The notes beneath the pieces are model-generated. The model did no database searches. It saw only the letters and a list, made by a program, of their open reading frames with translations, and was not told the origin of the DNA. A stretch of 64,000 nt of DNA from Candidatus Latescibacterota bacterium (GTDB lineage: Bacteria > Latescibacterota > UBA2968 > GCA-2709665), in assembly GCA_965226795.1 (NCBI GenBank), contig CBDDDZ010000005.1:192001-256000 (forward strand). The letters are read 5' to 3'. Below, in pieces: positions 4,128 to 46,357 of the stretch; within the stretch, counting starts at the first letter, position 1, and each line of letters opens with the position of its first letter. A program made the position numbers and the translations under genes.

Positions 4128-4789
4128 GTGGGCTGCGGATGACGGGCACAGGGGGCTGAAGCCCAGGCCTCCAGGTAGCCGCTCACGGCGCACCGAATAT
4201 CCTCAGCGGCGAGGATACCCGACATGACGGCCACGCCCGCGGCGCCCTCACCCTTGCACGCGGCAACCCGTTCGGGCGTGATGCCACCCAGGGCATAGAC
4301 AGGAAGGGGTGAGCATCCCGTGGTCCGGCGAAGGGCCAGGGGTCCGGAGCCAGGACCGTATCCCGGTTTCGAGACCGGAGTGTGGATCGGGCTGAAGGTG
4401 AGAAAATCTGCGCCGTCAGCCTCCCTGCATTCCTTTCTGTTGTGCGTTGAACGACCGATCAGCAGGTGGTTTCCGTATTGTTGTCGAATTCCGGATGGGG
4501 TGGGGCCGATTGCGGGAAGATGGACGCCCGCCGCGCCGATATCGCACGCAAGCCCCGCATGCGTGTTGACGAGCAGGCGCGCGCCGTAATTCTCGACCCG
4601 GCGCTGGAGCCGGACGGCCAGGTGACGGAGCGCGCGGATTTCGAGGCGTTTTTCCCGCAACTGGACGAGGCGGACACCGGCGTCCAGCGCTTCCGCGAGA
4701 ACGTCCTCCAGCGCACGGGGCGCACACGTCTCGCGGTCTGCGATCAAATAGAGCGGCGGCAACCCTATCGCATGGGCTGTCTCATTCAT
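4124..4789 (-). CDS. ThiE/TenI family protein (probable thiazole tautomerase TenI-like)
   Basis: [33 protein letters not shown]. It lacks the ND/GQDD motifs of true ThiE and lies directly after thiG. Confidence 0.8.
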
Positions 4790-18202: not shown

Positions 18203-18239
18203 GCACTACACGCCGCCTGTGCCTACAGACAAGGATAAC

Positions 18240-18268
18240 TTGCAATTTACAAGGAATTTAGATATAAT
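18240..18268 (+). promoter_or_regulatory. Sigma70-like promoter
   Basis: TTGCAA, 17 nt spacer, TATAAT. Confidence 0.6.
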
Positions 18269-18323
18269 TTGAGCAACTCAGGAGTGGGTATTTTCTTACG
18301 TCTGGATGAAGGAAAAATCCGCA

Positions 18324-18524
18324 ATGGATGACTACTTGAGATTGCTATAAACGGCCAAGGACGAGTATCAGCAATACGTTGAAATCAGCGAACTGTATGA
18401 GTTACTGGTTAAAAACGATGAGGTTCAGGTGAAATGCCAGCCTCCCAGTCCAGAACGTCCTTTGACAACGAATGAGATTTCAATCAGCCAGATAGATCGC
18501 TTGTCACATGACTGTCAATTTTGA
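18324..18524 (+). pseudogene. Small acidic protein with in-frame TAA at codon 9
   Basis: MDDYLRLL*TAKDEYQQYVEISELYELLVKNDEVQVKCQPPSPERPLTTNEISI...; promoter upstream. Confidence 0.4.
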
Positions 18525-18950
18525 ATTGGTACCTCCCTTGAAGCCCACCACAAACGATAGAAGAACAATTCGGATTACGCATAAACAGCGAATCCCTATT
18601 CCAACATCCCCGCCCCTGAGTCAATAACTGCCTCCCGCGATTTGTATCGCATCTGAGTTAAATCCTCTTCCACATTCAGTGTTGTAAATCTCGTTTCAGA
18701 CAATTACTCCGCCTCGAAATATTCGAAATTTCCAGGTCTTCCGCTTTCGCAGTCACGACCTCGTGCGTTTCTACGAGACCACCATGGCATCAGGGAATCG
18801 TGGATAAAGTAATTGCCCGGATAATTTGATTTCTCATTCTTGACATATTGCAGGTATTAAGATACGTTTGACAGGGCAGTTTCTCTGGATGAGGCAGCAC
18901 TGACAGAATAGGACGGATTCTCGGGCAGTTTTTCCAGGTGTTTTTTCGGT

Positions 18951-21900
18951 ATGAGCAAGGGCAAGCCAACGCGCAATTATTCAGAAAAGACAATTAAAGT
19001 CATTTTCGGTTTGAGCGGAAACCAATGCGCGCATCCTGATTGCGAGAGCGCTGTCATTGAGCCGCCGACGCCGCAGTCTGACGCTCATGTCGTGGCTCAA
19101 ATCTGCCACATATATGCCATTAGTGAAGACGGTCCGCGAGGAAAGGCCGGGCTAACGGTCCAAGAACTCAATTCTCCAAATAACCTGATCTTACTTTGTC
19201 CGAATCACCATACTGTGGTAGACGGCCAACATGAAACATATCCAGCCGAAATGCTCAAACAGTGGAAGAAGGAACATGAAGCTAAATTGATCAAGAATCG
19301 GTTGCATGCAGGCTCGGATGGCGTTGTGTGGGATGTGTCGTCTCAACCCGATTTTCCAACGCATCTGATCGATCAAGAAATCAAGAAGAAGACCGATCTG
19401 CTTCGCAAATCCCGATTTTTCGCGGAATTCGACAGGAATGGATTTTCATTGACATTTGCGAAAAAACTCGCAGGAGGCGAACTCTCGGGCGGTACCAGTG
19501 AGGTACGGAGCGAGGCGTTAGGATGGTGCGTCCGATTATTGTCAGATGAACATCTAGAAAAAGCAGAATCGTACCTCGAACAGGCGAGAGAAATAGGAAC
19601 CTGCCCGGAAGTTTACATAGCAGCCTCGTTTATTTCTTCGCGAAAGGGCGACAAGGCGGCTGCTCTGCAGAGTTTGGCCGCCATTGACTCGCCCATGTCC
19701 CGTTCCGCAGCACTGATGATTTCCGAATATCACGACGGCCCTCAAGGCGCAGTTGACTGGTTGGAAGCGGCCGACATTGACGCTACGAAGTTGGATGCTG
19801 ACGGTAAACGATTCTTATTGGCGTGTTATTTTGAACTCGCCGATTGGGAAGCAGCACGGAGATTAATTGATGTGCTAACTGATGACGATTTATGCAATTC
19901 TCCGACCCTTTTTCATATGACGGCGGTAACCCATCTTATAACGGCGGTACCAAACGAACTCCGCTCCAGCATCCTTTACCAACCACCTTTCGAAGTCAAA
20001 AGCTTTCCACTTGCTTCAGACTCTTCGTCGATAAAAGCCCTTCGAGTTGCCCGAGAATGCTTTGTAAGAGCCGTAGAGTTTGCGCATCAACTAAACTGTC
20101 CATTTGCAGCAAAACTGGACGATGAATACGCACTTTGGCTTGAACTCGTGGATCCCGATGAGTTCGCCCGTGGGAGAAAGCGACTAAAAACGGAACTTCG
20201 CAATGCAGAAAATTCCCTAAGTCTCGTTCGCTTCGGTTTTTAATTTGGAGTTAATCTCGACTTCGCAGCAATAGAACGGGAGATCGATCGTCAAACCGCC
20301 CTTTACGGAGGTCTAACTTACGACACTGCGATCGCTCGCCTTGCCCTTGTCTTCAGCCAGCAGACGCCGAAAGATGCCTCGACCTATATCGAGCGGCACC
20401 AGAATTCGCTTTCTGATTACGCAAACAAGGAATATCTGCATTTTGTGCGAATCGAACTGTTGGCGCGTGCCGGTCGCCTTGATGAAGCACGTGTTCGCCT
20501 AGAAACTCTCGAGAATGAGGAACTCTCAGAACCGAACAAGAGCCACCTTCGGAGAATCATCGCCGAAGCGGGCGGAGCCGATCCAATTGAACGTCGAAAG
20601 GTTCGGTTTAGAGAGACGAATTCAGTCCGAGATTTGTCGATACTTGTTGACCAACTCGAAGCTCAACACGAATGGGAGCAACTTTGCGAACATGGAGAAA
20701 TCTTGTTCAAGCGAACCAACCGGTTGTCTGATGCCGAACGGTTGGCAATCGCGTTACACAATACAAGGAAAAATGACCGCCTGGTCGAATTCCTCCAATC
20801 CAATGAGACGATCATACCACAATCCAAGCAACTCCAGCAACTCCGTTGTTGGTCCTTGTACCACGAGGGCGCGCTGCTACAAGCCCGTACCGAAATGGCG
20901 AAACTTGGTGATAACTCGGATGACGGGAACTATCGCAGCCTCAAGATCAATCTTGCAATCTCTATGGGTGACTGGAACTCGGTTTTGGCGTTTGTAACCA
21001 ACGAATGCCAAAAAAAAGAGCGGAGAAACGCACCGGAACTGTTAGGGACAGCACAACTGGCCCTTCGCTTGGATTCTGGTAACCAGGCAAAAGAGTTGTT
21101 ATTTGCAGCGGTAGAAAAGGGAAACGACGATCCCAAGGTTTTAGCGACAGCATACCATATTGCAACTACAGCCGGTTGGGAGGGCCAAGAGGTCTCTCGT
21201 TGGATTCAAAAAGCCGCTGCTCTCTCAGGGGACGATGGGCCAATTCAGAAAATCACGGTGAGAGAATTTCTGGATCGGAAACCGGAATGGGAACGAAGAG
21301 AATCTGAAATCTCCCGGGGGCTGATGTGTGGAGACCTTCCGTTGTTTCTTGCTGCTCAACTGCGAAACATATCTCTTGGCAATATGGTGCTTTATTCGGC
21401 TCTTGCGAATCTGGATGAAAGCGATCCGAGACGGAGAAACGTGATTCCTGCATATAGTGGACAACGGCCACCGACGACGCTTGAAACGGGTGGACGTATC
21501 GGAATAGATGCAACCGCATTGCTAACCTTAAGCTTGTTGAAGGTGCTCGAAGAAGCATTAGATGCTTTTGAATCGGTCCATATACCACATTCAACTCTTG
21601 GTTGGCTTTTTGAGGAAAAACAAAGACTTACATTTCATCAGCCAAGCAGGATCAGGGATGCGCATCAGGTCAGTGATCTTGTGTTTGCTCGTACGATGGA
21701 GGTCCTATCACCAAACGCCGTCCCGGATAGCGAACTATCGGAGCTAGTTGGACATGATCTGGCGCAGTTTATAGCGGAAGCGAAAACGATGAGAGACGCA
21801 GATGTTTCTCAACGTGTTGTTGTTAGGCCGGCTCCGGTTTATCGAATCGCTTCTTTGTTGGAAGAAGAAGCCGACCTGACGCCGCATGAAGGCGTATTGA

Positions 21901-23069
21901 GTAGCTGCCAATCAATTATAGATAAGTCGCAGAAGCAGGGCCAGATTACTAAGAATGAAGCCGAAAGGGCCTGTGCTTTTCTCGGGCTTCAGGAGAAACC
22001 CTGGCCCAATCAGCCACGGATCACTGACGGAGCGATTCTTTACTTGGATGATTTGGCCGTGAGATATTTCCTCCATCTTGGCATATTGAGAAAATTAAAT
22101 GCTGCTGGTTTCAGATTGATTATTTCCCAAAGCGTGGTATCCGAAGCGAAACAGTACATCTGCTACGAAAGGATCGCTGGCGAAGCCAAGAATGACATCG
22201 AACGTATACGTTCTGCACTTAATGCGCGGATAGAGTCAGGTAAGGTCAAGGTAAGTAGACGGACGAACTCCGCGAGAGATTCAGAAGACCAGGCAGCATT
22301 CGAACATCCTACCGCAGGAGCCTTGAACCTGGCAAACGAATGTGCTGCGATTATCGTGGACGACAGATACCTCCACCAACATGCCAATGTCGTTGATCAC
22401 GATGTAAAGACGCCGATAGTCTCAACACTGGATCTTGTTGATGCGTTGGTTGCCGGAGGTGTCATATCGACTAAAGATCGACTCGCATACAAAACTCAAC
22501 TTCGCCAGGCCGGATATTTCTTTGTGCAGGTAATCGAAGATGAACTGGCACATCATCTTGAGGCGTCCACGGTGGAGAACGGAGAAATCATTGAGACGGC
22601 CGAACTTAAGGCTATCCGGGAAAACATACTTCAGGTTCGGATGAGTAACTGGCTTCAGCTTCCGAAAGAAGAATACTGGCTTCAGACGATGTTAGGAGTG
22701 TCCCACCGAGTGCTGGCAGGAATGTGGAGAGCCAATGCTGACTTCGAACAGGTGCGAGCCCGCTCGGAATGGATCCTATGTGTGACAGACGTGCGTGGCT
22801 GGGCACACACAGTTGGCATAGAACGTGGTGAAAACATAGTCAAGTCGAAATTCGGCGAAAGTGTCCTGTCGTTGATTTCACTCGGGATCGAACTGCCCCC
22901 AAAGGTCAGAGATGAATTCCAAAAGTGGGTTGAAGAGAGGGTCTTGGCTCCGCTTAAAGAGAATAATCCCGACGTGTTTCGTTACCTGCTTGAATCGTAC
23001 AAAGGACATATTTCGCACGTGGTGGAAAAATGCATGAAGGAGATGAAGAACGATGACCATGGATCTTGA
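18951..23069 (+). pseudogene. HNH endonuclease - helical (TPR-like) repeat - PIN-like defence protein, ~1372 codons, single in-frame TAA at 20241-20243
   Basis: ORFs 18951..20243 and 20445..23069 share a frame and 20244-20444 is open (FGVNLDFAAIEREIDRQ...). HNH motifs CAHPDC, CHIYA...GPR, NLILLCPNHHTVVD; PIN-like IDATAL, LDDLAV and IVDDRY. Confidence 0.8.
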
Positions 23070-24981
23070 TGCCAAGACAGTATTTGCAGCGCAATGTTTG
23101 AATTTCGTGCCGCCACTAATACGTGAGACTCTCCTTGAAGATGGGGACTTTCGGGAGGAGTATAATGTACCGACGGACAACCGGATAGCGTTTGGTAAAT
23201 CCGGTGTAGATTTCCAGCGTTACGATTTGTTCAATACGATTCGAGATGTTCTGGCAAACGCATCAATACAGCAAGTAGCGGATGTCAATGGCAAGTTGTG
23301 GACCCTTAAGGACATAAGTGGAGAAGGGGAACTCCCGAATCTTGAAATGAGTCGCAGCGAACAGTGTGTTCCCCTTCCGGCATTCGCTTCATTGTCCCCA
23401 GACAAAAGTGTACGCTTGCGTCTCCTCAAGGAGGCGACTTCTGAAACCAATTTACCGCGACACGTCTCGTCCTTTTGGCGTGACATTCTTGAGAATCGCG
23501 CTCTCGAAGACGACGAAGTCGATGCGTTCTATAGTGATTTGAGGGATACGCCGACCGCCAAGGCGCGAGACATACGCACGGATATACTGGCCGGACAGAG
23601 TACCGCATCTTCTCTTGTCCCGAGTTCACGCCAATATTACGAAAGGCTTGTGGGCGTATATGATGGTAGCGCTTCCATCCGCGATTATTCCGCGGGCAAT
23701 GGTAGCGCGTTCTTAATTCAACTGGCCGAATGGCGCCCCTATGACGGCTTCTTGTTTAGTCTCTTTCTGTCATCACATTCCTTGCTAACTGACGAAATCA
23801 ATGTCGACCGTATAAGCCGTGAAGACCTTGTGAGAGCCTACGGTTTCTTAGCGAAACACGGGGATCGGTTCTCGCAGTTGGGGGCCATCGAGGTCGGATT
23901 GCGGATTCTTCCATCAAATCCTGAGATCGAACCTGCGCTCAGTTGTCTCATTGAGCAGATTCGAGACGACGACATTGAAGGGCCGGCTAGCTGTTTCAAG
24001 CTCTTATCGGCGATGTTTCGTCTTGTCGATGGAGAGTTGTCCAGGATTCGGCTGTTTTACTCGGAACCTCCTTTCTATCGAAGATTGGCGGCCTTGTCAC
24101 ACGCCGCATTGATTCAACGCCAACTTGCGGATTTAGACATAAATGTTGATAAATTCGCGGAGTGGGCGTATAGCGATCGAGGAGAGCCGCATTATCTACA
24201 GTCCCTTGTAGATATGCGTGTGGAACCGCATTGGGATCCCGAACTTACGGGGGTCCATCAGGCGAAGGCCTATTTCTGCGGTCGTATCATGATCTCAGGT
24301 AGAAAATATGCGCAGAATATAAAGGGCAGCCCCATCTATGAGCTTGTATTTGGTGACGATGCGAGCAGTCTGCCGTCTATTGGTGATTTCCCCAATTCAT
24401 GGTTGCGAGGGCCGTTGGAAGGAACCCATGAACCGGATCGCATCTTGCCTTCGGAGGTGGCGGACGCGATTGAGAAACAGCTCAGCACGAGAGAAGTAAG
24501 GCCATCGTCGTTCTTCGCGCTTGTGAATTTCGTCTCGACTCATCGCATCAGTGCAAATCATGCGCAGTTGGCGTCAGATGCGTTAAAACGTGCCGGCTAT
24601 CGTCTTCAGGACGTCGAATGCAGATCCCAGCTTGTTACTATATTGAATAGGTTAGCAACAGTTGCTGCCGTCACGCGAAGCCTAGGGCTCGCGGACGCCG
24701 TGCGAATTCTTGCACGTAGATATAGGCGTGACCCCGAGTACAGGTTATCCATTCCAGAGGTCGTGAAGCTTTGTCTCACAGCTGCCGCAAGCCGTTCCGA
24801 TTTAGCCGAGTGGATAGAATTCGTCGGCGAATGGCTAACAGAACTTGCATTTGAAGATTTGAAAAGTGAGGAAGGTCAGGTGTTTTACTCATCCTTGGAT
24901 TGGCTTTGCCATGCCGTTCCTGAGCTATGGGTTTCCTGCGGTAGAGCCCACGCAGCCTTGATGGCGTTTAATGCAAAATGA
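23053..24981 (+). CDS. Uncharacterised 642 aa helical protein, partner of the HNH-TPR-PIN gene
   Basis: Long ORF overlapping the upstream stop by 17 nt; same AT-richer composition. Confidence 0.8.
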   Translation: MTMDLDAKTVFAAQCLNFVPPLIRETLLEDGDFREEYNVPTDNRIAFGKSGVDFQRYDLFNTIRDVLANASIQQVADVNGKLWTLKDISGEGELPNLEMSRSEQCVPLPAFASLSPDKSVRLRLLKEATSETNLPRHVSSFWRDILENRALEDDEVDAFYSDLRDTPTAKARDIRTDILAGQSTASSLVPSSRQYYERLVGVYDGSASIRDYSAGNGSAFLIQLAEWRPYDGFLFSLFLSSHSLLTDEINVDRISREDLVRAYGFLAKHGDRFSQLGAIEVGLRILPSNPEIEPALSCLIEQIRDDDIEGPASCFKLLSAMFRLVDGELSRIRLFYSEPPFYRRLAALSHAALIQRQLADLDINVDKFAEWAYSDRGEPHYLQSLVDMRVEPHWDPELTGVHQAKAYFCGRIMISGRKYAQNIKGSPIYELVFGDDASSLPSIGDFPNSWLRGPLEGTHEPDRILPSEVADAIEKQLSTREVRPSSFFALVNFVSTHRISANHAQLASDALKRAGYRLQDVECRSQLVTILNRLATVAAVTRSLGLADAVRILARRYRRDPEYRLSIPEVVKLCLTAAASRSDLAEWIEFVGEWLTELAFEDLKSEEGQVFYSSLDWLCHAVPELWVSCGRAHAALMAFNAK

Positions 24982-36353: not shown

Positions 36354-39300
36354 CTACGGAAGTACGATTTTCCCCAGGTATTCCCTGAGCTTGGGCGGAA
36401 CGTGCTTTCGTATCAGGCTTTTCTTAAACGCCCAGGCCGTTTCCCCGTCGAGCTTCATCTCAAAGTGAACTGATTTTCCTTCGTAACGAGCGACGGGTTC
36501 CCCGTCGCGAAAGAGGATCCGGTTACCGGGAATCGCCGGGATACGCCTGCCCGGCGTAACGACTCCGACCAGGTTGACCGGATCGCAGGCACTGACCGAT
36601 ACGAGTTCGCCCCGTTTCTTTTCCCGCTTAAGGGACCGGATGACGGTAATTGCCTCGGAGAGCGCGTATTGCTCTCCCCATCTCTCCACGAATCGTCCTC
36701 CCCGGACCTCGCCTCGGTCCTCCATCCGCCTCAATACCCGTACCAGATCGCGCCAGGGCGGTATGCCGTTCTCTCTGGCCAGTACCCGTCTGAAGACAAC
36801 CCCGTAGCGTTTCAGCAGAATCCGCGCGCACTGTTCGATATCGGCCTCATCTTCGAATTCGGGTTCGATCACGGACCACCGGCCGGCTTGCTCCATGCCG
36901 AAGACCGGCCCCCGATTCCGACGGGACCGCACCTTGAATTTCTCAGGTATCAGGAGCGCCCGAAGACCCGCGAAGCTGTCGCACGTCAGCAATCCGGCCG
37001 CCACCAATTCGGCGATGGCGCTCTCGATTTCGCTCCTGAGCATTTTCGACCTGGCAAGGATGTCGTGGTAAAAAAGCGCGCCGCCGGCTTTCAGGCATTC
37101 GAGTACCCGTTGCGCGGAAGGCGTCAGGACCGGCGCGCAAGACTCCAAAGGGCGGAACGGCCAGGCCGCGAAGGTGGTTCGATTGACCAGGGTGATCGGC
37201 GTGGTTCGTATGGGGGTGTTTCCCGCCCTGACGCTTTGCGTCCTGAGATAACGGCCCCACATGGTTTTCCCCGATAAACAACAGGTATCCAGCCATAAAT
37301 GGTCGTAGTCCTTGATGCGCGAAGGCAGGACGTCGCTCTCCCACGCGATGGCTGGACAGGAAAATCCGTCGAGCTGATCCAGAACTTCCTTAAGCGCTTC
37401 GGGGCCCTCTTTCCGGGTGCCCTCGGTCAGACTGTGCCAGCGGAGAAGAAACCGAACGTAATCCGAAGAGGAAATGGGTCTTATTGCCCGCCGGAGCTTT
37501 TCGAGCGTGTATCTGTGGATACGCGCCAGCAGGCGGCGCTCGCACCATTCCGTTTCGGCGTCGGAAGGCAGGTCCGGTGAGAAGTGGCCCCTGATCGCGA
37601 ATCCCTCGGATTCCAGAGCGAGAAGAGCCTGGTCGATCCGCTGTCTGGAAAGGCCCATATCGCCTGCGATTCCGGACGCGGTTGTGGGCCCCAGCAGTTC
37701 TATCCGGCCCCTGACCACGTCCGTGAGTACCTGTTCCGGATCCTCCGACGAAAATGTCCGGATGGAGTCGTGAACCGCCGTTGCGCCGCGTCCGACGGTT
37801 TCGCCGTACAGGACCTCGAATTGCGGAATCCTCTCGACGGCAATCCAGAGTTTCGGTCCGTCCCTCGGGTCGACGGGTACCGCCTGACCCGATTCCACCA
37901 GCGACGCCAGGAGCGGCCGCCACGTTCCATCGCCGCTCTCCGTGATTTCCGCGTCGGTCAGGAACCCGTGCATCACCAGGACATCATACAATTCATCCGC
38001 GTCCGTAACCGCTGGCCAGGCCTCCTCCTTCACCGCATCGATCGCACCTTGCTCCAGCTTGCCCAGCTTCCTGGCGTCCGCGGGTTCGAGCCGCCTGCGT
38101 GTTCTGACGGCCTGTACCCGCCTTTCCTCAAGTGGCGCGTCATCCAGGAACGCATACGGCCGCGCATTGAGAATGCTCTCGGACATGGGGGAAGGTTCAC
38201 GGAGATCACGAGCCGACACTTCGATTTCCCCTGTGTGAATCCGCTGGAGAAGACGCTCCAGAGCGTCCACGTCCATCGCCTCGTGGAGGCAGTCGTGAAT
38301 CGTCTGGTACACCAGGGGATGGTCCGGTACCTCGCGGTCACCGGGGATGTTTTCCAGGCAGGCGAGCTGATCAGGAAAAATCAGGGCCAGCAGGTCCTCG
38401 GCGTCGGAACGCTGGATCTGGGGCGGAACGCGTTCTCCGCCCCTGCGCCTGAGCACAGCCAGCGCCGTGCAGGCGTTCCAGCGCCATCGCGCCTGGAACA
38501 TCGGCGCATCCAGCAGGGCCTGTACGAGAACCTCGCGAACCGTCCGGTCGTTCAGATAGCCGACCACTTCCTCAAGAGGGAAACTGTGCGTGGGCCCGAG
38601 GGAGAGCACCAGGCTCTCTTCGTTCGCCGCCGCCTGGAGTTCGAAGTTGAACTTTCGGCAGAATCGTTTTCGAAGGGCGAGCCCCCACGCCCGGTTCAAC
38701 CGGTTTCCGAAGACCGAATGGATGACGAGGTGCTGGTCGCCCACCTCGTCGAAGAAACGCTCCATAACGATGTGCTTCTGCGACGGTACCAGGTCCAGAG
38801 ATGCCTTTGTGGCAGCCAGGTACGTGACCACCTGGTCGGCCGCCTCCGCGCTTGCGCCGACCTCGTCCGTCAGCCAGGCGGCGGCATCCGTTTTCCATTC
38901 TCCGGATCCGTTGTCGTCCAGTTCATCGAGGTTTATTCTCGCAGCCACTTCTTCGCGGACACGGGAGACCGACGTTGAGAGTTCCGCGGATCTGCCGGGG
39001 GCTTCGCCGATCCAGAACGGCATGGTGGGGGGAAGGCCGTCGGCGTCTTCGACGCGCACCTTTCCGGTTTCCACCTTGAGGATTCGCCACGAAGCGGTGC
39101 CCAGCTGAAAAATGTCGCCAGGAAGGCTCTCGACGGCGAAATCTTCGTGCACGGAGCCGATCTGAACGCCGGATGGTTCCAGGCGCACGTCATAGTCGAA
39201 CTGGTCGGGGATGGTTCCTCCCGAGACGATCGCGTTGAGACGAGCGCCTTTTTTGGCCCTCAGTGTCCGCGTGACCGGATTGAAGTGGAGGTAGGACCGC

Positions 39301-40685
39301 CGCGTACCCCGCCTGAATGTGAATCCCTCCACCAGCATCTGGACGACGCCGTTGAATTCTTCAATGCTCAGATTTCGATAGATGGACGATTTCCGGACGA
39401 GGTCGTAGAGCGCTTCTGACGTGCTGTCCTCACTCGCGACCTCAGCCACGATCTGCTGGGCGAGCACATCCAGCGGTTTCTCGGGAAAGGGAAGGTTCTC
39501 CAGTTCGCCCCGGCGGACACTGTCCAGCAGCGCCACGGCTTCGACCAGTTCATCTTTGGTGAGCGGATACAGCTTCCCGCTCGGGGTTCCCTCGAGGGTG
39601 TGGCCGGAACGGCCAACGCGCTGAAGCAGCGTGGCGATGGCCTTGGGGGATCCGATTTGAACAACCAGATCGATGGATCCCACGTCGATGCCCAGTTCGA
39701 GAGATCCGGTGGCCACCAGGGCACTCAGGGCGCCGGCCTTGAGCCTCGTCTCCGCGTCCAGGCGTTTTTCGCGGGACATGCTCCCGTGGTGGGCGGAGAC
39801 GACCTCGGGCCCCAGCCGGTCGGACAGATGATGCGAAAGGCGTTCGGCCATGGAGCGCGTGGGCACGAATATCAGGGTGGTCTGATGTTCGGTGATGGTA
39901 CGTTCCAGGGATTGATGGATCTCTTCCCAGACTTCATTGGCCATCACTGCCGTGAGCGGCGATTCCGGCAACTCGATGTCCAGTTCCAACTCGCGCCGAT
40001 GACCGATGTTGAGGATCTTGCAGGGTTCTGCGTTTCCGGTGAGAAAATGCGCCATCCGATCAATGGGCTTCTGGGTGGCGGAGATACCGATCCGGTGGAC
40101 CGGGTTCCGGCTGAGGCGCGCCAGTCGCTCCATTGAAATGGACAGGTGGGCGCCGCGTTTGTTACCGGCAACGGCGTGGATCTCATCCACGATTAACGTG
40201 CCCGCGCTGCTCAGCATTTCCCGTCCGCCGTTGCTTGTCAGGAGAAGGTAGAGAGATTCCGGCGTGGTCACCAGGATGTGGGGGGGCGTCCGGATCATCT
40301 TTGCCCGTTCGGAGCCCGGTGTGTCTCCGGTCCGGACCATCGCCCGCACGTCCGCGTTGGGGTAACCGTTCTGTTCCAGGAGCGCCTTTATGCCCTTGAG
40401 CGGGACCTGCAGATTGCGATGGATATCGTTGCTGAGCGCCTTCAGGGGCGATACATAGACGACCTGGGTCCGGTCCTCCAGCGTGCCGTCGAGACGGCGC
40501 TCGAACAGGTCGTTCAGGACTGCCATAAATGCCGCGAGCGTTTTCCCGGATCCTGTCGGCGCGGACAGCAGGACATTTCTTCTATTCAGGATTTCAGGCC
40601 ATGCCAGAGACTGAATTTCGGACGGGTCGTTGAAATTCTTATTAAACCACTGCCGGACAACGGGATGGAAGCTTTCCAAGGGCAT
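36354..40685 (-). CDS. lhr: Lhr-like ATP-dependent DEAD/DEAH helicase
   Basis: APTGSGKT, SPLKAL, TTPESL, DEIH, SAT, HHGS, SLELGID, QRVGRSGH; long C-terminal wHTH region. Confidence 0.92.
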   Translation of the reverse strand: MPLESFHPVVRQWFNKNFNDPSEIQSLAWPEILNRRNVLLSAPTGSGKTLAAFMAVLNDLFERRLDGTLEDRTQVVYVSPLKALSNDIHRNLQVPLKGIKALLEQNGYPNADVRAMVRTGDTPGSERAKMIRTPPHILVTTPESLYLLLTSNGGREMLSSAGTLIVDEIHAVAGNKRGAHLSISMERLARLSRNPVHRIGISATQKPIDRMAHFLTGNAEPCKILNIGHRRELELDIELPESPLTAVMANEVWEEIHQSLERTITEHQTTLIFVPTRSMAERLSHHLSDRLGPEVVSAHHGSMSREKRLDAETRLKAGALSALVATGSLELGIDVGSIDLVVQIGSPKAIATLLQRVGRSGHTLEGTPSGKLYPLTKDELVEAVALLDSVRRGELENLPFPEKPLDVLAQQIVAEVASEDSTSEALYDLVRKSSIYRNLSIEEFNGVVQMLVEGFTFRRGTRRSYLHFNPVTRTLRAKKGARLNAIVSGGTIPDQFDYDVRLEPSGVQIGSVHEDFAVESLPGDIFQLGTASWRILKVETGKVRVEDADGLPPTMPFWIGEAPGRSAELSTSVSRVREEVAARINLDELDDNGSGEWKTDAAAWLTDEVGASAEAADQVVTYLAATKASLDLVPSQKHIVMERFFDEVGDQHLVIHSVFGNRLNRAWGLALRKRFCRKFNFELQAAANEESLVLSLGPTHSFPLEEVVGYLNDRTVREVLVQALLDAPMFQARWRWNACTALAVLRRRGGERVPPQIQRSDAEDLLALIFPDQLACLENIPGDREVPDHPLVYQTIHDCLHEAMDVDALERLLQRIHTGEIEVSARDLREPSPMSESILNARPYAFLDDAPLEERRVQAVRTRRRLEPADARKLGKLEQGAIDAVKEEAWPAVTDADELYDVLVMHGFLTDAEITESGDGTWRPLLASLVESGQAVPVDPRDGPKLWIAVERIPQFEVLYGETVGRGATAVHDSIRTFSSEDPEQVLTDVVRGRIELLGPTTASGIAGDMGLSRQRIDQALLALESEGFAIRGHFSPDLPSDAETEWCERRLLARIHRYTLEKLRRAIRPISSSDYVRFLLRWHSLTEGTRKEGPEALKEVLDQLDGFSCPAIAWESDVLPSRIKDYDHLWLDTCCLSGKTMWGRYLRTQSVRAGNTPIRTTPITLVNRTTFAAWPFRPLESCAPVLTPSAQRVLECLKAGGALFYHDILARSKMLRSEIESAIAELVAAGLLTCDSFAGLRALLIPEKFKVRSRRNRGPVFGMEQAGRWSVIEPEFEDEADIEQCARILLKRYGVVFRRVLARENGIPPWRDLVRVLRRMEDRGEVRGGRFVERWGEQYALSEAITVIRSLKREKKRGELVSVSACDPVNLVGVVTPGRRIPAIPGNRILFRDGEPVARYEGKSVHFEMKLDGETAWAFKKSLIRKHVPPKLREYLGKIVLP

Positions 40686-40833: not shown

Positions 40834-41577
40834 CTAACGCCGTGCATGATCCTGGTGTATTGGCCGGAACTCGCCCCAGTGGGTGATCGAGTCCGTCCAC
40901 GTTTGCCGGTCCGTCGTCGGCCGGTCGCGCGAACGATCGAAATATACGGCGGCTATGCCCAGCGATCTCGGGGCCAGGACATCGTTTTGAAGATTATCCC
41001 CGATGAATAGGACGTCACCGGCGCGTTCAGCGGAAAGCCCGGCGCGACTGAGACTCTCACGATAGATTTCGGGGCCCGGTTTTCTGAACCCCAATCTGGC
41101 GCTGTCCACGACAAATTCGAAGTTTTCCAACAATCCGTAGTCGGCGAGCAGCTGTTCCGGCCACCCTGAAAGGTAGAAATTCGACACGACACCCATACGA
41201 ACGCTACCGCGCCACGACGCCAGCATCGCCTCGACCCCTGGCGTAGGCCGGACCTGCTTCGGATAAGACCTTTCGAATTCTTCCACCATTTCTTGTACGA
41301 GCCGATGGGCGGGCTTTCGATCGATCTTTCCGGAAGCCATCAGCACTTCCATCAGGCGATCCGGGAGCAACACCTCCCTCGAGTCGTTGCCGGACAATCG
41401 GTGCCTCCGCCAGCGCGAATACGCATTCACGAAGTCGCGCGGCGTGGCGAAGTAACCCTCCCGGACCGGCAGGTCGACAATCGAGCTCAATCCGGACTCA
41501 TCTCCGGTTTCATCGAAGTCGTCCAAAAGCGTATTGAAGCAATCGAAGAAGATCCAACTGGGTGTACGGTTGGTCAT
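40834..41577 (-). CDS. HAD-superfamily hydrolase
   Basis: FFDCFNTL, VVSN, RKPGPEIY, IGDNLQND. Confidence 0.9.
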   Translation of the reverse strand: MTNRTPSWIFFDCFNTLLDDFDETGDESGLSSIVDLPVREGYFATPRDFVNAYSRWRRHRLSGNDSREVLLPDRLMEVLMASGKIDRKPAHRLVQEMVEEFERSYPKQVRPTPGVEAMLASWRGSVRMGVVSNFYLSGWPEQLLADYGLLENFEFVVDSARLGFRKPGPEIYRESLSRAGLSAERAGDVLFIGDNLQNDVLAPRSLGIAAVYFDRSRDRPTTDRQTWTDSITHWGEFRPIHQDHARR

Positions 41578-42365
41578 GGAGTCGACGAAGACGATTGGGA
41601 GAGATTAATGTTCGTGGCCACAATTCTCGAGGTCCAATTCAGAACGGTATCCAGACCGGCGAGATGCGCGTTCGTTCGCTGCGCCATCGGCCAGGCCGTG
41701 GGCGTCTCGAAGATGAGCACGTGGTCCGCGTGGTGATGATATACGTAGGGGACGGTCCCGCCGGTGCCCCACGACGGCGAGACCTTGTAGACGCCCCTTG
41801 AGATGGGGAGGTCGTTCTCTTCCTCTTCCCCGTCGGGATCGATAGCGCCCACCTTCTCGACTTCGCGGACGATATCCGGACCGGCCCACCGTTCATCGCG
41901 GCGGCCTTCGTACATGTAGAATCCGGTGGCCTCCCAGTCTTCGTGAAAATCCACGTACAGGTCGAACCGCTTTCCTTTCAATATCTGCTTGACAATATCG
42001 CTCTCGGGAACCCCGGGCTCCGAGAAAGACCGGTTGATGTCTGTGCCCTCCCGGTTTTCCCTTCTGTTGTGGACGTATCCGTAGGGATTGACGCACGGCA
42101 GAATGAGAAACGTAAAGTAATGAAGCAGATCCACCGGGTTCCGTTCGAGAAAGGCGAGAACCGCCTCCGGCCCTGCCGGTTCGTCCCCGTGGACGCCGCC
42201 GGAGAGAAGCACGGGTTTCCGACCGCGCGGGTCACCGCCCAACCGGATGCAATAGATGGGAAATCCGTCCACGAATCCGGCCGTCTCTATCTCCATATCC
42301 GCGAGATCCAGTGCCTCCAGCCGCCGGGTCAAGCGGCCCAAATCATGGCCTTCCATTTTTAGCAT
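41574..42365 (-). CDS. M14 family zinc carboxypeptidase / deacylase
   Basis: GVHGDEPAG, NPYGY, DINRSF, DFHED, FETP. Confidence 0.88.
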   Translation of the reverse strand: MLKMEGHDLGRLTRRLEALDLADMEIETAGFVDGFPIYCIRLGGDPRGRKPVLLSGGVHGDEPAGPEAVLAFLERNPVDLLHYFTFLILPCVNPYGYVHNRRENREGTDINRSFSEPGVPESDIVKQILKGKRFDLYVDFHEDWEATGFYMYEGRRDERWAGPDIVREVEKVGAIDPDGEEEENDLPISRGVYKVSPSWGTGGTVPYVYHHHADHVLIFETPTAWPMAQRTNAHLAGLDTVLNWTSRIVATNINLSQSSSSTP

Positions 42366-42509
42366 CTTTCGGTTTCATGGATCTGCCCGTTTTCTGAGAT
42401 GGTAAGCCTGATTAATACATGCAATTGTCATGTTTAGCTGCTTTATTCGCCAATCAATCAATGCCACCCCCGTATAAAGGCTTGTCGAGCCGTTGAGGAT
42501 GCGGGTGTG

Positions 42510-42740
42510 AAGGTGGGGCAGACATTCCTGTCTGCCCTTCTCAATGTCCTTACTGCCGGAATGCAGGCAGTTCGACTCCCCCTCTCCTCGCAGGAGAGGG
42601 GGTGGCGCGCCACAGAAGAATGGCTTGCGCCGTCCTTTTTCCAGTGGAGGAGATGGCGGCGAGTCGTAGCGTGCCCGGACACAGGATTCTGAGGTTTCGG
42701 TTTGCTGTATGTGAGCCGACAGGAATGTCTGCTCCACCTT
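42510..42740. repeat. Inverted REP pair (REPIN-like) with internal hairpin
   Basis: AAGGTGGGGCAGACATTCCTGTCTGC at 42510-42535 and an inverted copy at 42715-42740 (24/26 identical); internal CCCCCTCTCCT-CGC-AGGAGAGGGGG. Confidence 0.85.
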
Positions 42741-43058
42741 CTTAAGTTTTGGTTCGAGGTATCGCTTGAGTGCGTGAACCATCCGAGATAAATCGCCTGT
42801 ACTTGCTTCCACTTTCCGTAGCAGCAACGTGTCACTGTCCCCTGTCTGCGTGAGGTGACACACAGCCAGGATGGTCAGGACGCCCTCGTCGAAGGCGCCT
42901 TTCACATTCTTGCCGCATTGACTTGCAAGATAGACCCTGTCACAATTATCTAGAACATCCACCGTAGTTTGATCCCAATTCATTGTTATAACATTACTTG
43001 CGTCACCATAATACAATGACTTGGGTAGGGGAACTACCTTCTCAATGACTTATTCAGG

Positions 43059-45374
43059 TTAAGTAAGCGTTCTATAGCGATCCAATGCCTCTGCCCTCAT
43101 GTCGCGGGAAACACATGCTGTGACCATCTTGAACGCACTATCCAGACCCCACGCATATCCCAAGTCCACAATTGCTTCCCCGGATGCTTCAATCGTCCTC
43201 CGAGTGGGAACTTTATTACTATTGGAAAGCTCGACCAGTTCATGAATACGGTTACGGTCCGAAATCAGGATTGGCGCACAGCATTCAATTGTTCTGCCCA
43301 ACATGAGCGTTGCGAGGCGCGCCGAATCCGTAGGAAGGTCGTCCCACACATTCCAAATGATCGGTTTGCTGTTTGCCTTTTTCGCTCGATCTATAACGCG
43401 AAAACACTCAGCTGCATCGAGCATCCGTTCATTTTGCACAACACCCACGTACACTGATCCGCGATCGGTCTCCACATCACACCCGGGCACCTCCACGGTG
43501 CACCAACCCGTCCGACTTAAAAATGCCGGTTGTTCGTCGACTATTCCAACACGGATAGGCTGTTTTGCATTCGGGTTAGGGGGTTTCTTTGGTCTTGATG
43601 TCGAGAGGTTATCTGCTCGTGGAACCCGATTCCAATCTAATCCTCCTTCAGGCAGCCGCATGTCGAGTTCCACGACGTAGATCGAATCTGACTCTTTGCA
43701 CTCAGAAAGCGGCCGCGACTTCTTGATACCCGCTTGCCTTGCTGAGAGCTCTCTTCCATCGGGAGAAAACGCAAACGGATGAGTTGGGGCACGCCTTTGA
43801 CTACTGTCGTGCAGCGTACATAAAGAGAAGAAACGATTTTCTACCGCTCTTAGGCGAAGGATTGATGACCATTTGATGTCAACGACGTTGTCGTAACTTG
43901 GATTGATCCATATCCGGGCGCCGCGCCTTGCGAGAAATCGGGGCAGCAGGCCCAGATATTGGTCGTGGCAAATGGTCGCGCCAGCCCTCACGCCACTCAA
44001 GTCGAAGGTTGGTAGCGCATTGCTTGCTTGCCAATCCTGAAATTCAAAGGCGACGGTCTTTTCTGTGGAGTGTTTCGTGTACAAACGTGACACTGTTTCA
44101 TCAGGATCTATACGTAAAAGGATCTGGCGGGTGCGTCCGATCGAATCGTCACTATGGTCGGTCGCGCCGACAAGCAATGGCGCATCCAGATCCGCAGCGA
44201 GTTTCTTCAGTAAGTTGATACGTTTGGAATCGGTCGCGTTAATGTATTCTTCCGGAAAGAGAACAAAGTCTACGCTTTCGCCTGCAAAGGATGCGTGGGT
44301 GGGTATGACGGGCTTCTGGGCATTATCTCCAAGAGGTACGATTCCGAGTAGCGCACTATGGTTTACCCGAGGAAACACGAGTGCCGCTCGCAGTACAGAA
44401 GTCGTTCGAGCAGCGGAGTTATGCCTTTTAGCCATCGTTTGGCTTGTTCTTAAGGGCTTCTGAGTTGAACTGTGAATGCCGATAAAAGCGGAGAATCGCT
44501 GCCGGTCGTTGTTGCTGTCGGGGTCGAGCGAACACCAGACCATATCGCGGGCGTACAGTCTAACTGTCGGCTGAAGTCCCTCTATCGACGGCACGAGATC
44601 CCGCAATGCGTCATACCATGCCCGTTGTTCGTCACGAAATGGGGGATCGTTGTCCTTTGCATCGTGGCGCTCACAGTGTGAGATCCATTGCTTTCCGGAA
44701 AAACCCAAGGCCAGGTCGTCCGGGTACGCGTGAAGGGTCAGTTTTCGCGGCGTCGTGAAGTGTTGTCGCTCATCGAACTCCAGGATAAATCCGGGGTCGG
44801 GTAACCAAAAGTCGCACGCGGCCAGCGTTTCGGTTCTCACGAAATCCTTAAGGGCAAAGCCACGGTATTTCTCTAGAATTGCTGCGAGTTCCCGCAGTGT
44901 CGAGTAGATCTGCGTTCCGGCGTATGAGGAAAGATGAGTTGGCCAGTCAAACCTGTGGTTCGCCAGGCATTTTCCGTAGATTCGTACGAGAAGCTCGCGG
45001 ACCCGCGCCTTACAGTCAGGACAATGCTCAGAGTGACGTTCTTGCTGTATCACGAACTTCCTCTTTCTGGTTCGATTAGCACGCCGAGTGAGAGTCTTGG
45101 CGCGATAACCACCTCCGCAATTGCAATCAGCTATTTCGAAGCCACGTTTACTCAGAAAGCCGTTGGACTCACCGCCGCCAGAGAATTCGTACGAAGGGAG
45201 AAACCGACCCGTTGCTATCTGATGAGCCAATGCAACGGTGTACTTCGGCGGGTAATGACAGCCATCATTAACCAGGCAGTAATACCGCCCCTTCCTACGC
45301 GGTGGAACACCCTCACGCCTGATACGACAAATCGCTTCGACCAAGTGCTCGCTTGTAATGCATGACGGTATCAT
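43059..45374 (-). CDS. Fusion protein: McrA/McrB-type N-terminal head + Vsr/DUF559-like nuclease + carbon-nitrogen hydrolase
   Basis: IPSCITSEHL...HYPPKY...FSGGGESNGFL..RGF; CDFWLP..FILEFDERQHF...QRAWYD; VLFPE, YTKH, ICHD (E-K-C), RAVEN. Confidence 0.8.
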   Translation of the reverse strand: MIPSCITSEHLVEAICRIRREGVPPRRKGRYYCLVNDGCHYPPKYTVALAHQIATGRFLPSYEFSGGGESNGFLSKRGFEIADCNCGGGYRAKTLTRRANRTRKRKFVIQQERHSEHCPDCKARVRELLVRIYGKCLANHRFDWPTHLSSYAGTQIYSTLRELAAILEKYRGFALKDFVRTETLAACDFWLPDPGFILEFDERQHFTTPRKLTLHAYPDDLALGFSGKQWISHCERHDAKDNDPPFRDEQRAWYDALRDLVPSIEGLQPTVRLYARDMVWCSLDPDSNNDRQRFSAFIGIHSSTQKPLRTSQTMAKRHNSAARTTSVLRAALVFPRVNHSALLGIVPLGDNAQKPVIPTHASFAGESVDFVLFPEEYINATDSKRINLLKKLAADLDAPLLVGATDHSDDSIGRTRQILLRIDPDETVSRLYTKHSTEKTVAFEFQDWQASNALPTFDLSGVRAGATICHDQYLGLLPRFLARRGARIWINPSYDNVVDIKWSSILRLRAVENRFFSLCTLHDSSQRRAPTHPFAFSPDGRELSARQAGIKKSRPLSECKESDSIYVVELDMRLPEGGLDWNRVPRADNLSTSRPKKPPNPNAKQPIRVGIVDEQPAFLSRTGWCTVEVPGCDVETDRGSVYVGVVQNERMLDAAECFRVIDRAKKANSKPIIWNVWDDLPTDSARLATLMLGRTIECCAPILISDRNRIHELVELSNSNKVPTRRTIEASGEAIVDLGYAWGLDSAFKMVTACVSRDMRAEALDRYRTLT

Positions 45375-45538: not shown

Positions 45539-46357
45539 CTATGATTCTTGAGTACTGTACCGAATCTCGTGGTAGTCGTAATCGCTCGTAATCGGCACGG
45601 GCTTCCCCTCCAGAAACGCCCATCTCCCCACGTCGCATGCCGATGCCCGGACGAATCCGTTAATGTACGATCGCCGGGGCAGGTCCGTCGCATTCGGCGA
45701 TGAGCCGTGAACCGTATACGACGTAAACATCAACACGTCTCCCGGCATGGCCTCGCAGGGCACGGCCGAGGAGACAGCCACCTGCGCTTCGACACTCCCT
45801 TTCGCGTACCGTTTCGCCTTCAAATCGCCCAGTTTATGGCTCTCTGGCACGACGTGCAGGCATCCGCTCGCGACGGTCGCCTCGTCCACCACGATAATGG
45901 TCTGCACATAATTGTTCACCTGATCGCGAAACGCGGGCGTGGGACGGACGTCCTGGTGCCACGGAAATTCGATTTTCCCGCCCGGCATCTTGAAGTTGAT
46001 CTGATTGATAAACTGCTTCAGTGTCGTTCCGATCAACGGGTCCAAAAGGGCGGGAAATTTGGTACTATTGCGGATCTCCTCGAACGCCGGATGAATCAGT
46101 GCCGGCCACTGGACCTTTCGAAGATAGCGTACGGCTTTTGGTCCCGCCATCGGTCCGGGGGTCTGCAGGTGAACGTGCACGTCGTTCCGCCTGCCCTTGA
46201 GAATTTCATCCGGAAGATCCGTCCGCGATGCCAGTTCCAGGATGTAGTCGTAGCCTTCGCGCAGGCGCGCAATCTCATCGCCGCCGAATACGCCGCGCGC
46301 CACGTGGTATCCCTGTTCCCGGAAGGCTTCGACGTCTTTCTTGCTGAGAGTTTTCAT
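45539..46357 (-). CDS. PhyH-family Fe(II)/2-oxoglutarate dioxygenase
   Basis: FREQGY, PWHQD, GCLHVVPESH, PGDVLMF...HGSSPN..R. Confidence 0.9.
   Translation of the reverse strand: MKTLSKKDVEAFREQGYHVARGVFGGDEIARLREGYDYILELASRTDLPDEILKGRRNDVHVHLQTPGPMAGPKAVRYLRKVQWPALIHPAFEEIRNSTKFPALLDPLIGTTLKQFINQINFKMPGGKIEFPWHQDVRPTPAFRDQVNNYVQTIIVVDEATVASGCLHVVPESHKLGDLKAKRYAKGSVEAQVAVSSAVPCEAMPGDVLMFTSYTVHGSSPNATDLPRRSYINGFVRASACDVGRWAFLEGKPVPITSDYDYHEIRYSTQES

Follow-up and report, generated by a model that had tools for sequence, protein, structure and literature searches.

The window analysed here, a stretch of 64,000 nucleotides from a Candidatus Latescibacterota bacterium, carries on its minus strand a gene for a 771-residue protein, P0001, which lies between host genes for a PhyH dioxygenase and an M14/AstE-type hydrolase (Table 1). 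The gene is a single ORF with no interruption. Its GC content is 0.525 and its GC3 0.54, compared with a GC3 of 0.61 to 0.76 in eight measured neighbour genes, so that a reading made from the sequence alone (hereafter, the sequence-only reading) was right to call it intact and AT-richer than its neighbours. A comparison with 949 long genomic ORFs, whose median GC3 is 0.70, places it in the bottom 2.5%. The motifs quoted in that reading (YPPKY, FSGGGESNGFL, CPDC, D188..EFDERQH, QRAWYD, FPE, YTKH, and ICHD) are all found in the ORF. As for the downstream spacer, it has 77 further blastn matches in the genome, with up to 38 copies per stretch, and shows spikes in read depth. The 213-residue ORF running across it, a repeat mosaic whose GC3 is also 0.54, has no match in Pfam, PADLOC, or NCBIfam. 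Parts of the P0001 gene are covered by contigs from RNA libraries, a kind of contig that cannot show transcription, and a promoter scan returned matches at chance level and no site on the minus strand. A nearby Lhr helicase scores as DpdJ, yet it is a conserved flank.

Table 1. Features of the P0001 locus (positions in the window)
Feature	Position	Strand	Remarks
M14/AstE-type hydrolase	41574..42365	-	Downstream flank, host gene
Downstream spacer, dispersed repeats	42366..43058	.	213-aa ORF across spacer probably not a gene
Whole gene	43059..45374	-	Encodes P0001 (771 aa, four domains listed below)
C-terminal domain, aa ~591-771	43062..43604	-	Shortened, degenerate second nitrilase-like fold
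Nitrilase-superfamily amidase domain, aa 327-590	43605..44396	-	Pfam, VIA
Triad codons	E375 44250-44252, K434 44073-44075, C469 43968-43970	-	Fourth Glu is E444
Vsr-fold nuclease-like domain, aa 113-300	44475..45038	-	VIA Vsr match; AbaSI 4par profile match
Predicted nuclease active site	44757..44813	-	D188, E199, D201, E202, Q204, H205, F206
Head, ScoMcrA N-terminal domain (PF26345), aa 1-88	45111..45374	-	
PhyH dioxygenase	45539..46357	-	Upstream flank, host gene, outside unit

P0001 has 483 homologues among 8000 scored candidates, drawn from several phyla and many unrelated sites, with full-length coverage in most of the 120 homologues listed, and contigs from other public runs span the gene almost completely. 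This rules out an assembly chimera or a chance ORF and shows that the fusion is not peculiar to this assembly. The AlphaFold2 model has a mean pLDDT of 84, with two low-confidence linkers (residues 91-112 and 301-324). While the three parts described from the sequence alone are present, a fourth domain (residues ~600-771) had been overlooked.

The head is assigned to ScoMcrA_N (PF26345) in precomputed annotation and resembles the ScoMcrA structure 5ZMM with a VIA Z score of 8.0, in keeping with the ScoMcrA-like character proposed for it. The accompanying idea that it reads DNA modifications finds no support, since the head is missing or exchanged in relatives of P0001 and its function is given as unknown in the ScoMcrA paper (PMC6224610). 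It is elsewhere seen on restriction-type proteins and would here be an accessory domain.

As for the second domain, the whole-protein model strengthens its prediction as a Vsr-type nuclease. It superposes on Vsr (1cw0) with a modest VIA Z score of 6.7 (rmsd 3.8, 117 aligned residues), followed by a likewise modest match to the homing endonuclease I-Bth0305I (3r3p, Z 5.7) and by 3hrl (Z 5.1). The prediction can be sharpened, the motif being nearer to that of AbaSI/PvuRts1I than to that of Vsr: D188, E199, D201, E202, Q204, H205, and F206 align in register with D61, E72, D74, E75, H77, H78, and F79 of AbaSI. The one histidine lost in P0001 (H77, replaced by Q204) is the one found dispensable in AbaSI active-site mutants (PMC4081097). 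By E-value the similarity is statistically weak (0.024 for the AbaSI 4par profile match, 0.24 and 0.13 in other comparisons); Pfam gives no PvuRts1I match to P0001, and AbaSI/PvuRts1I structures are absent among the 50 VIA matches listed for the whole-protein model, which is not an exclusion. E199, D201, E202, and F206 are nevertheless present in 110/110 nuclease-bearing representatives, and D188 and H205 in 109/110, a near-invariance that spans bacteria and archaea. K122, on the first helix, is also near-invariant and lies outside the stretch aligned with AbaSI, in which Lys23/Glu26 were considered as counterparts. A conserved H114/C118/C121 cluster forms a putative Zn site. Matches of the CxxC region to copper-ATPase/HMA proteins were dismissed as a motif artefact because the domain model resembles Vsr-fold proteins.

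The third domain has the alpha-beta-beta-alpha fold of the nitrilase superfamily. It matches Pfam CN_hydrolase above the cut-off (E 1.3e-11) and superposes on Nit2 (2w1v) with a VIA Z score of 24.0 (rmsd 3.7, 232 aligned residues; Foldseek E 3e-13). The complete Glu-Lys-Cys triad recognized by the sequence-only reading (E375, K434, and C469) is invariant at the sequence level in 181/181 homologues, and the fourth Glu, E444, is found in 140 of 150 full-length proteins. The C-H-D that begins at the nucleophile is more like the motif of the amidase branches than the C-W-E of nitrilases. The nearest solved amidases are metabolic Nit-type enzymes, there is also a match to the acyltransferase Lnt, and the domain is neutral in net charge (33 Lys and Arg vs 33 Asp and Glu). 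When the C-terminal domain is folded alone, its 22 highest VIA matches all belong to the nitrilase superfamily (best Z 8.7, rmsd 2.9, 116 aligned residues; Foldseek E 9e-5); a profile comparison with the amidase finds no significant similarity. The C-terminal domain is predicted to be an internal partner of the amidase.

The family is patchy, occurring in 13 of the 151 genomes of the phylum, and 5 of the 15 genomes of the genus have clean empty sites, at which the PhyH gene directly adjoins the M14 gene. Two close relatives (L013 and L014) sit at different insertion sites. No neighbour gene is conserved across the homologue loci, recurring neighbours merely reflecting common insertion sites rather than an operon, and no metabolic operon recurs, even though the P0001 copy is itself surrounded by metabolic genes. 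Searches of viral contigs and phage records turned up no relative, and plasmids gave two short partial matches only.

At least 200 residues follow the nuclease in 72 of 150 representatives, in the position that AbaSI gives to its modified-base reader, and swaps in this slot have involved at least five types of domain: 12 triad amidases, 15 "FP[G/A]G-K-C," 21 "TCGG-K-C," 6 "LLPAC," 15 "HE," and 3 others. In two of these classes, the alignment shows that Lys and Cys are kept and the triad Glu is absent. Their profile similarity to nitrilases is weak (E 0.007 for FPGG and 0.16 for TCGG), with alike motif spacing, and a PDB sequence search with them returned no nitrilase match. For the HE domain, the ESM Atlas gave leads of 0.80 at most, and one relative (L071) ends in a UDG-like tail (E 0.046). 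Some relatives appear by eye to carry DUF4268-like tails, for which Pfam gave no confirmation.

The nuclease is absent from 20 of 181 proteins, having been lost repeatedly with the triad retained, and one clade (79-89% identity) lacks it altogether. All four domains show dN/dS values of 0.14-0.42, and the value between two nuclease-less alleles is 0.20-0.21. Since the nuclease is repeatedly lost while the amidase remains under purifying selection, the amidase probably also functions alone, which fits as well the metabolite depletion offered as an alternative in the sequence-only reading. Of the loci of the triad clade, 13/47 are broken, some perhaps through assembly errors, and the breaks affect either domain, so neither domain requires the other as an antidote. 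In several (e.g., L032, L040, L043, and L045), the nuclease is intact and the amidase is broken. Unless these are assembly errors, such a combination should be lethal if P0001 were a single-chain restriction-modification enzyme, whose nitrilase-fold domain would write a protective acyl or carbamoyl mark while the nuclease cuts unmarked DNA. We give this scheme a very slim chance, despite the acyltransferase within the nitrilase superfamily (the Lnt match) and the parallel with orphan methyltransferases, in which the other enzyme is likewise retained after the nuclease is lost.

The persistence of triad and selection in nuclease-less alleles fits the main rival explanation, a two-armed abortive infection in which the amidase would be a toxic effector destroying an essential amide- or amine-bearing metabolite, and the nuclease an optional second arm or a sensor. 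There are precedents, since defence by UG5/DRT11 needs nitrilase catalysis and is abolished by C876A (PMC13436386), the nitrilase has been proposed as the effector of DRT1 (PMC13275509), and C-N hydrolase toxins have been proposed for ParA ternary systems. Four distant homologues faintly match the Drt1a/RTasNitrilase models (E 0.005-0.04); P0001 itself does not. However, antitoxin, sensor, and conserved partner are all absent, P0001 has no PADLOC DRT match at E 1, and a toxin role leaves unexplained why the partner in most nuclease-bearing relatives is either without the triad Glu or of an unrelated kind. We regard this explanation as unlikely, though the strongest of the rivals. Repeated deletion of the nuclease after insertion could also mean that a metabolic amidase, for nitrogen scavenging or detoxification, travels with a selfish, homing-like nuclease, which would decay after fixation of the gene. 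The fold match to I-Bth0305I, the metabolic nature of the closest solved amidases, and the metabolic flanks of P0001 are in line with this. It is made highly doubtful by the lack of a common target site across the insertions, the near-invariance of the nuclease residues in bacteria and archaea, the existence of non-amidase partners, and the absence of any recurring metabolic operon.

The defence-island enrichment that the sequence-only reading suggested testing for is seen in direction, if weakly. Loci of the family have defence neighbours about twice as often as controls do, without significance in most tests: 14/32 sites vs 4/20 by Pfam (P = 0.07, or 0.03 without one borderline control), 11/32 vs 3/20 by PADLOC (P = 0.11), and 15/32 vs 6/20 in the raw count (P = 0.18). 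None of the 10 Glu-less-type loci has a Pfam defence neighbour. The many loci lacking a defence neighbour would suit a role in host DNA repair or nucleotide clean-up, with a Vsr-like nickase and an amidase that clears amide-linked adducts or deaminates bases or nucleotides that are damaged. So would the UDG-like tail, one archaeal locus (L053) near mutS/mutL, and the fact that, among solved folds, the nuclease matches the repair enzyme Vsr best. Housekeeping repair would not be expected to show such patchiness, empty sites, differing insertion sites, and frequent breaks, and both the AbaSI-like motif and a head otherwise found on restriction-type proteins point elsewhere; we consider repair distinctly improbable. 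As the sequence-only reading surmised, no named system matches: P0001 has no match to PADLOC 2.0 models at E 1, and 44 family members gave short partial matches only, the strongest of which is with the ScoMcrA head (E 3e-5). Likewise, we found no description of this architecture in the literature, PMC10853773 included, a mention in a supplementary table remaining possible. P0001 is likely an undescribed stand-alone defence enzyme.

The explanation that we tentatively prefer, with a probability of about 0.4, is that P0001 is a mobile single gene encoding a modification-dependent restriction-type enzyme, whose amidase would sense or hydrolyse amide or carbamoyl modifications of bases. In this mechanism, the amidase would pair with the degenerate copy at the C terminus in an internal pseudo-dimer, whose amidase pocket may accept a flipped modified base. 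Two modifications described in phages are candidates, O-carbamoylated 5hmC and amide-linked carboxymethyl-C (PMC8670742; PMC12783734). The Mg-dependent Vsr-fold domain would then nick or cut at a distance, just as cleavage by AbaSI occurs away from its SRA reader. Since the triad is kept in its clade, the amidase would also remove the modified group; such removal could lay the DNA open to other enzymes of the host and would account for the persistence of nuclease-less alleles. Judged from sequence, the AbaSI register, the exchangeable slot, the lack of a conserved neighbour, the patchiness and empty sites, the dN/dS values, and the existence of phage substrates argue for this explanation. The weak AbaSI E-values, the modest defence enrichment, its absence from Glu-less loci, the metabolic surroundings, and the neutral charge of the amidase argue against it, and a pure reader would not survive repeated loss of the nuclease with its triad kept.

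On chemical grounds, hydrolysis of the 7-cyano- or 7-amido-deazaguanine or carbamoylmethyl-adenine named in the sequence-only reading would leave a carboxylated base. The stripping to allow cleavage that it envisaged is therefore better suited to O-carbamoyl or amide-linked cytosine modifications. A version built on this, which we think unlikely, is the unmasking of phage DNA: the nitrilase fold would remove an amide or carbamoyl cap (e.g., 5-carbamoyloxymethyl-C to 5hmC) so that the AbaSI-type nuclease cuts, with sister clades as non-catalytic sensors and nuclease-less forms as stand-alone erasers serving other host defences.

How hosts counter the amide and carbamoyl groups with which phages cap their bases is little explored. 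If our preferred explanation is correct, the joining of a nitrilase-fold sensor or eraser to a restriction-type nuclease would bring a new sensor class to modification-dependent restriction, and the enzyme might serve in mapping in the way that AbaSI serves for 5hmC. We know of no nitrilase that acts on DNA, so that this one would be the first. Should the amidase prove to be a toxin, a single gene with natural amidase-only alleles would offer a simple handle on the target of defence nitrilases such as that of DRT1 (PMC13275509).

Among known systems, small-molecule amidases of the Nit2 type (PDB 2W1V, 1F89, and 6YPA) share with P0001 the fold (Z 22-24) and the triad, at less than ~21% identity; their matches do not reveal the substrate, and the P0001 domain is fused to nuclease modules. 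DRT1 (UG1) and DRT11 (UG5) (PMC13275509; PMC13436386), the sole tested defence precedent that we found for a nitrilase fold, also place what by sequence is a catalytically complete nitrilase in a multidomain protein. They contain a reverse transcriptase, whereas P0001 has none, nor does any RT family occur among the scanned neighbours, and it has instead a nuclease as well as a degenerate copy within its own chain. ScoMcrA (PDB 5ZMM; PMC6224610) has the small N-terminal head in common with P0001, which lacks its SBD, SRA, and HNH domains, the remaining residues adopting other folds. As in type IV or modification-dependent restriction, there is no cognate methyltransferase (no neighbour being conserved) and a modular nuclease is joined to a partner, here a putative sensor. 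END nucleases (PMC12191111) follow a comparable design, in which exchangeable modules pair a nuclease with an enzyme fold repurposed to sense hypermodified DNA of phages, if the partner in the P0001 family is indeed a sensor. They combine a PLD or NucS-like nuclease with an inactive EndoIII/Ogg1 fold, whereas P0001 combines a Vsr-fold nuclease with a nitrilase fold that keeps its triad; the Glu-less partner classes of its family resemble the dead-enzyme sensors of END nucleases. Finally, AbaSI/PvuRts1I (PDB 4PAR; PMC4081097), which depend on 5hmC/g5hmC, share with P0001 the Vsr-like cleavage fold and the equivalents of D61, E72, D74, E75, and H78, a similarity that is borderline by E-value. 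P0001 differs by its ScoMcrA head, CxxC cluster, and insertions, and where AbaSI/PvuRts1I carry a C-terminal SRA-like 5hmC reader, it carries a nitrilase-fold amidase and its degenerate copy.

The 771-aa ORF encoding P0001 on the minus strand (43059-45374) is free of stops, and its GC content (0.525) and GC3 (0.54) are both below those of neighbouring genes, the latter ranking in the bottom 2.5% among 949 long ORFs from the same genome. This agrees with the uninterrupted frame, AT-richer than its neighbours, described in the sequence-only reading. That reading had made the fusion depend on read support and on homologues elsewhere. The gene is present in one copy in the genome, and contigs from other public runs span almost all of it. 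A protein search (8000 scored candidates) returned 483 relatives, and most of the 120 listed are full-length, 56-95% identical and annotated with PF26345 and PF00795; an Atlas cluster with this architecture has 69 members. The head-nuclease-amidase fusion is real and is not unique to this assembly. In Pfam, P0001 matches CN_hydrolase (E 1.3e-11) and, below threshold, DUF7255; all its NCBIfam amidase matches are sub-threshold, and PADLOC gives no match at E 1.

An AlphaFold2 model of P0001 (95 sequences, pLDDT 84) displays four domains, which are listed below with other features discussed here.

Domains of P0001 and features of the window and of other loci (L-numbers)
Feature	Position	Match or content
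Head	residues 1-88	ScoMcrA head, VIA Z 8.0, rmsd 2.1
Nuclease	residues 113-300	VIA Vsr Z 6.7, I-Bth0305I 5.7, NGO0050 5.1 (modest scores, from whole-protein model)
Amidase	residues 327-590	nitrilase fold, Z 24
C-terminal domain	residues about 600-771	folded alone; VIA best Z 8.7
L112, Thermococcus plasmid pTBMP1	736-8231	P0001-type head on a different protein, beside type I restriction gene
L071; L079	9947-12274; 3927-5525	P0001-type nuclease plus unassigned domain (faint type II REase match)
L052	10875-11792	separate ORF right after stand-alone head-nuclease gene; without Pfam match
L109 (genome G017)	about 2890-4436	1548-bp insertion with transposase-like ORF, in nuclease
Window, repeat mosaic	42366-43058	dispersed repeats, up to 38 genome copies per stretch; strong depth spikes in public runs; 213-aa ORF spurious
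Window, low-GC block	14165-24981	1345-aa restriction-methylase-like gene, then block of GC about 0.49 with ORFs of 430 (HNH-like motif at start), 874 and 642 aa (by eye)
Window, Lhr helicase	36354-40685	scores very high as PADLOC DpdJ; conserved flank in relatives

The head has the fold expected from its likeness to type IV restriction proteins. However, its proposed role as a reader is not established, since the ScoMcrA paper describes that head as small, flexibly attached and of no known function (PMC6224610). In some relatives it is missing or replaced by a different N-terminal domain. The L112 cluster, which has the head on another protein, also encodes RNase J, a class II glutamine amidotransferase, a gamma-glutamylcyclotransferase and an ADP-ribosylglycohydrolase.

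The Vsr-type nuclease recognised from sequence holds at the level of the fold, with modest scores. The N-terminal module profile aligned with AbaSI, a modification-dependent nuclease, with E 0.024 (0.24 and 0.13 with other profiles). Residues D188, E199, D201, E202, Q204, H205 and F206 align on AbaSI D61, E72, D74, E75, H77, H78 and F79. According to PMC4081097, AbaSI activity is abolished by D61A, E75A and H78A and kept in H77A; the sole mapped position that differs, Q204, thus lies opposite the dispensable H77. Among 150 representatives at 50% identity, the best of 1585 matches, 110 have the nuclease: E199, D201 and E202 are present in all 110, D188 and H205 in 109.

The complete Glu-Lys-Cys triad (E375, K434, C469) noted from sequence is found in 181/181 homologues having both amidase and C-terminal domain. 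The top 22 VIA rows for the C-terminal domain are exclusively nitrilase-superfamily chains, and Foldseek also returns this superfamily. Its invariant G-R-x-I-E resembles, by eye, the nitrilase dimer helix, and this resemblance suggests that amidase and C-terminal domain may form an internal pseudo-dimer; profile comparison of the C-terminal domain gave no confirmation of this.

Of 246 pattern matches in GTDB genomes, 229 encode a relative, and 80 loci were retrieved. The titles of the records with full-length forms name Latescibacterota, Nitrospira, Acidobacteriota, Alpha- and Gammaproteobacteria, Dadabacteria and one Aenigmatarchaeon, many of these being names of sponge-associated organisms. 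In a quick tree, 32 proteins group for the most part by phylum (8 changes; minimum 6, shuffled 17), and the branches between phyla are short. This shows that the family has resided long in its lineages and has probably also undergone a few transfers. Close relatives occur at unrelated sites (L013 and L014), and the loci compared share no conserved neighbour gene.

What follows the nuclease varies. At least 200 aa lie behind it in 72 representatives: a triad amidase in 12, FP[G/A]G-K-C in 15, TCGG-K-C in 21, LLPAC in 6, an HE-type partner in 15 and others in 3. In the FPGG and TCGG classes, the alignment puts Gly or Ala where the triad amidases have their Glu, and Lys and Cys are kept; neither profile comparison nor PDB sequence search confirmed a nitrilase fold for them. 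HE-type partners (including P0176, P0191, P0227, P0230 and P0237) share conserved HE and (A/S)PCA(F/I)(D/N)xGP-like motifs. L071 has a UDG-like tail where P0001 has its amidase, and the L052 ORF and its preceding gene are possibly a split form.

The PhyH dioxygenase and M14 hydrolase flanks are found in every one of the 15 genomes of the genus. The site is empty in five, with flanks about 20-40 bp apart, and the gene is intact in five; in G012 it is split across two contigs, and the interrupted G017 allele is otherwise 87-98% identical. The remaining three carry open frames without the nuclease (G013, 551 aa; G018, 566 aa; G007, 459 aa and also without the head). Across the phylum sample, 13/151 genomes match. 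For each domain, pairwise comparison of eight alleles gives dN/dS values of 0.14-0.42, with dS close to saturation in some cases; between the nuclease-less G013 and G007 the values are 0.20-0.21. Since synonymous distances differ strongly by domain within the same genome pair, recombination between alleles at this site is suggested. The nuclease is absent in 20/181 proteins at several tree positions, among them a clade of five members with 79-89% identity. Fragments may account for some of the amidase-only records; the loci checked on DNA are those of G013, G018 and G007. All 20 keep the triad, and the fourth Glu, E444, is kept in just 6/11 head-plus-amidase forms. Broken loci make up 13/47 in the triad clade, several breaking after an intact nuclease.

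A nuclease-free amidase under selection disfavours a pure reader role and would fit one of two roles, that of an eraser serving further enzymes of the host or that of a toxic effector. The latter, for which DRT1 and UG5 (PMC13275509, PMC13436386) and a proposal on C-N hydrolase toxins (10.64898/2026.10.19.760177) offer analogies, is to us the main rival, at a fairly low probability. We favour, at a probability of roughly 0.4, a modification-dependent nuclease, because P0001 resembles AbaSI in placing the cleavage domain first and an exchangeable partner behind, and because END nucleases use a repurposed enzyme fold as a hypermodified-DNA sensor (PMC12191111). The nitrilase-fold pocket would engage a base carrying an amide or carbamoyl group, which the triad-clade amidase would then hydrolyse. 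On chemical grounds, hydrolysis of preQ0, ADG or carbamoylmethyl-A would yield no more than a carboxylate, 5-carbamoyloxymethyl-C (PMC8670742) would give 5hmC, an AbaSI-family substrate, and glycyl-carboxymethyl-C (PMC12783734) would lose its cap. The protein could instead act in DNA repair, which we consider improbable, or be metabolic cargo carried by a selfish nuclease, slightly less probable again; a self-marking system is very hard to credit.

Defence-island enrichment, raised in the sequence-only reading, was found in direction and fell short of significance in most tests. Duplicates of one site (L001, L003, L004, L010, L028, L031, L033, L034, L038, L040, L047) and loci that had at most three neighbours (L021, L025, L042, L046, L056) were excluded, and neighbour genes came from a simple in-house score that missed some. 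A defence-type Pfam (restriction, methylase, CRISPR, TIR, SIR2, Abi or similar, a list compiled after matches were seen) lies within three genes at 14/32 sites versus 4/20 random sites of a single control genome, the one that carries P0001 (p 0.07; 0.03 without one borderline control). PADLOC matches within two genes number 15/32 versus 6/20 raw (p 0.18) and 11/32 versus 3/20 without generic helicase and ATPase matches (p 0.11). The enrichment is a weak trend. Loci of the Glu-less type have no defence-type Pfam neighbour (0/10), and one of the ten has a Druantia-like helicase by PADLOC. Elsewhere in the window, the three low-GC ORFs may together represent a single defence gene that has been split, or else form a small system.

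The sequence-only reading knew of no described system with this architecture. This holds in PADLOC, none of whose models fits P0001 or the family members tested, and in a literature search restricted to main texts outside subscription journals; two further papers mention nitrilase just in passing. We regard the family as a real, undescribed and testable candidate with predicted activity, and one that, by the defining features of those systems, stands apart from PvuRts1I, ScoMcrA, END and DRT.
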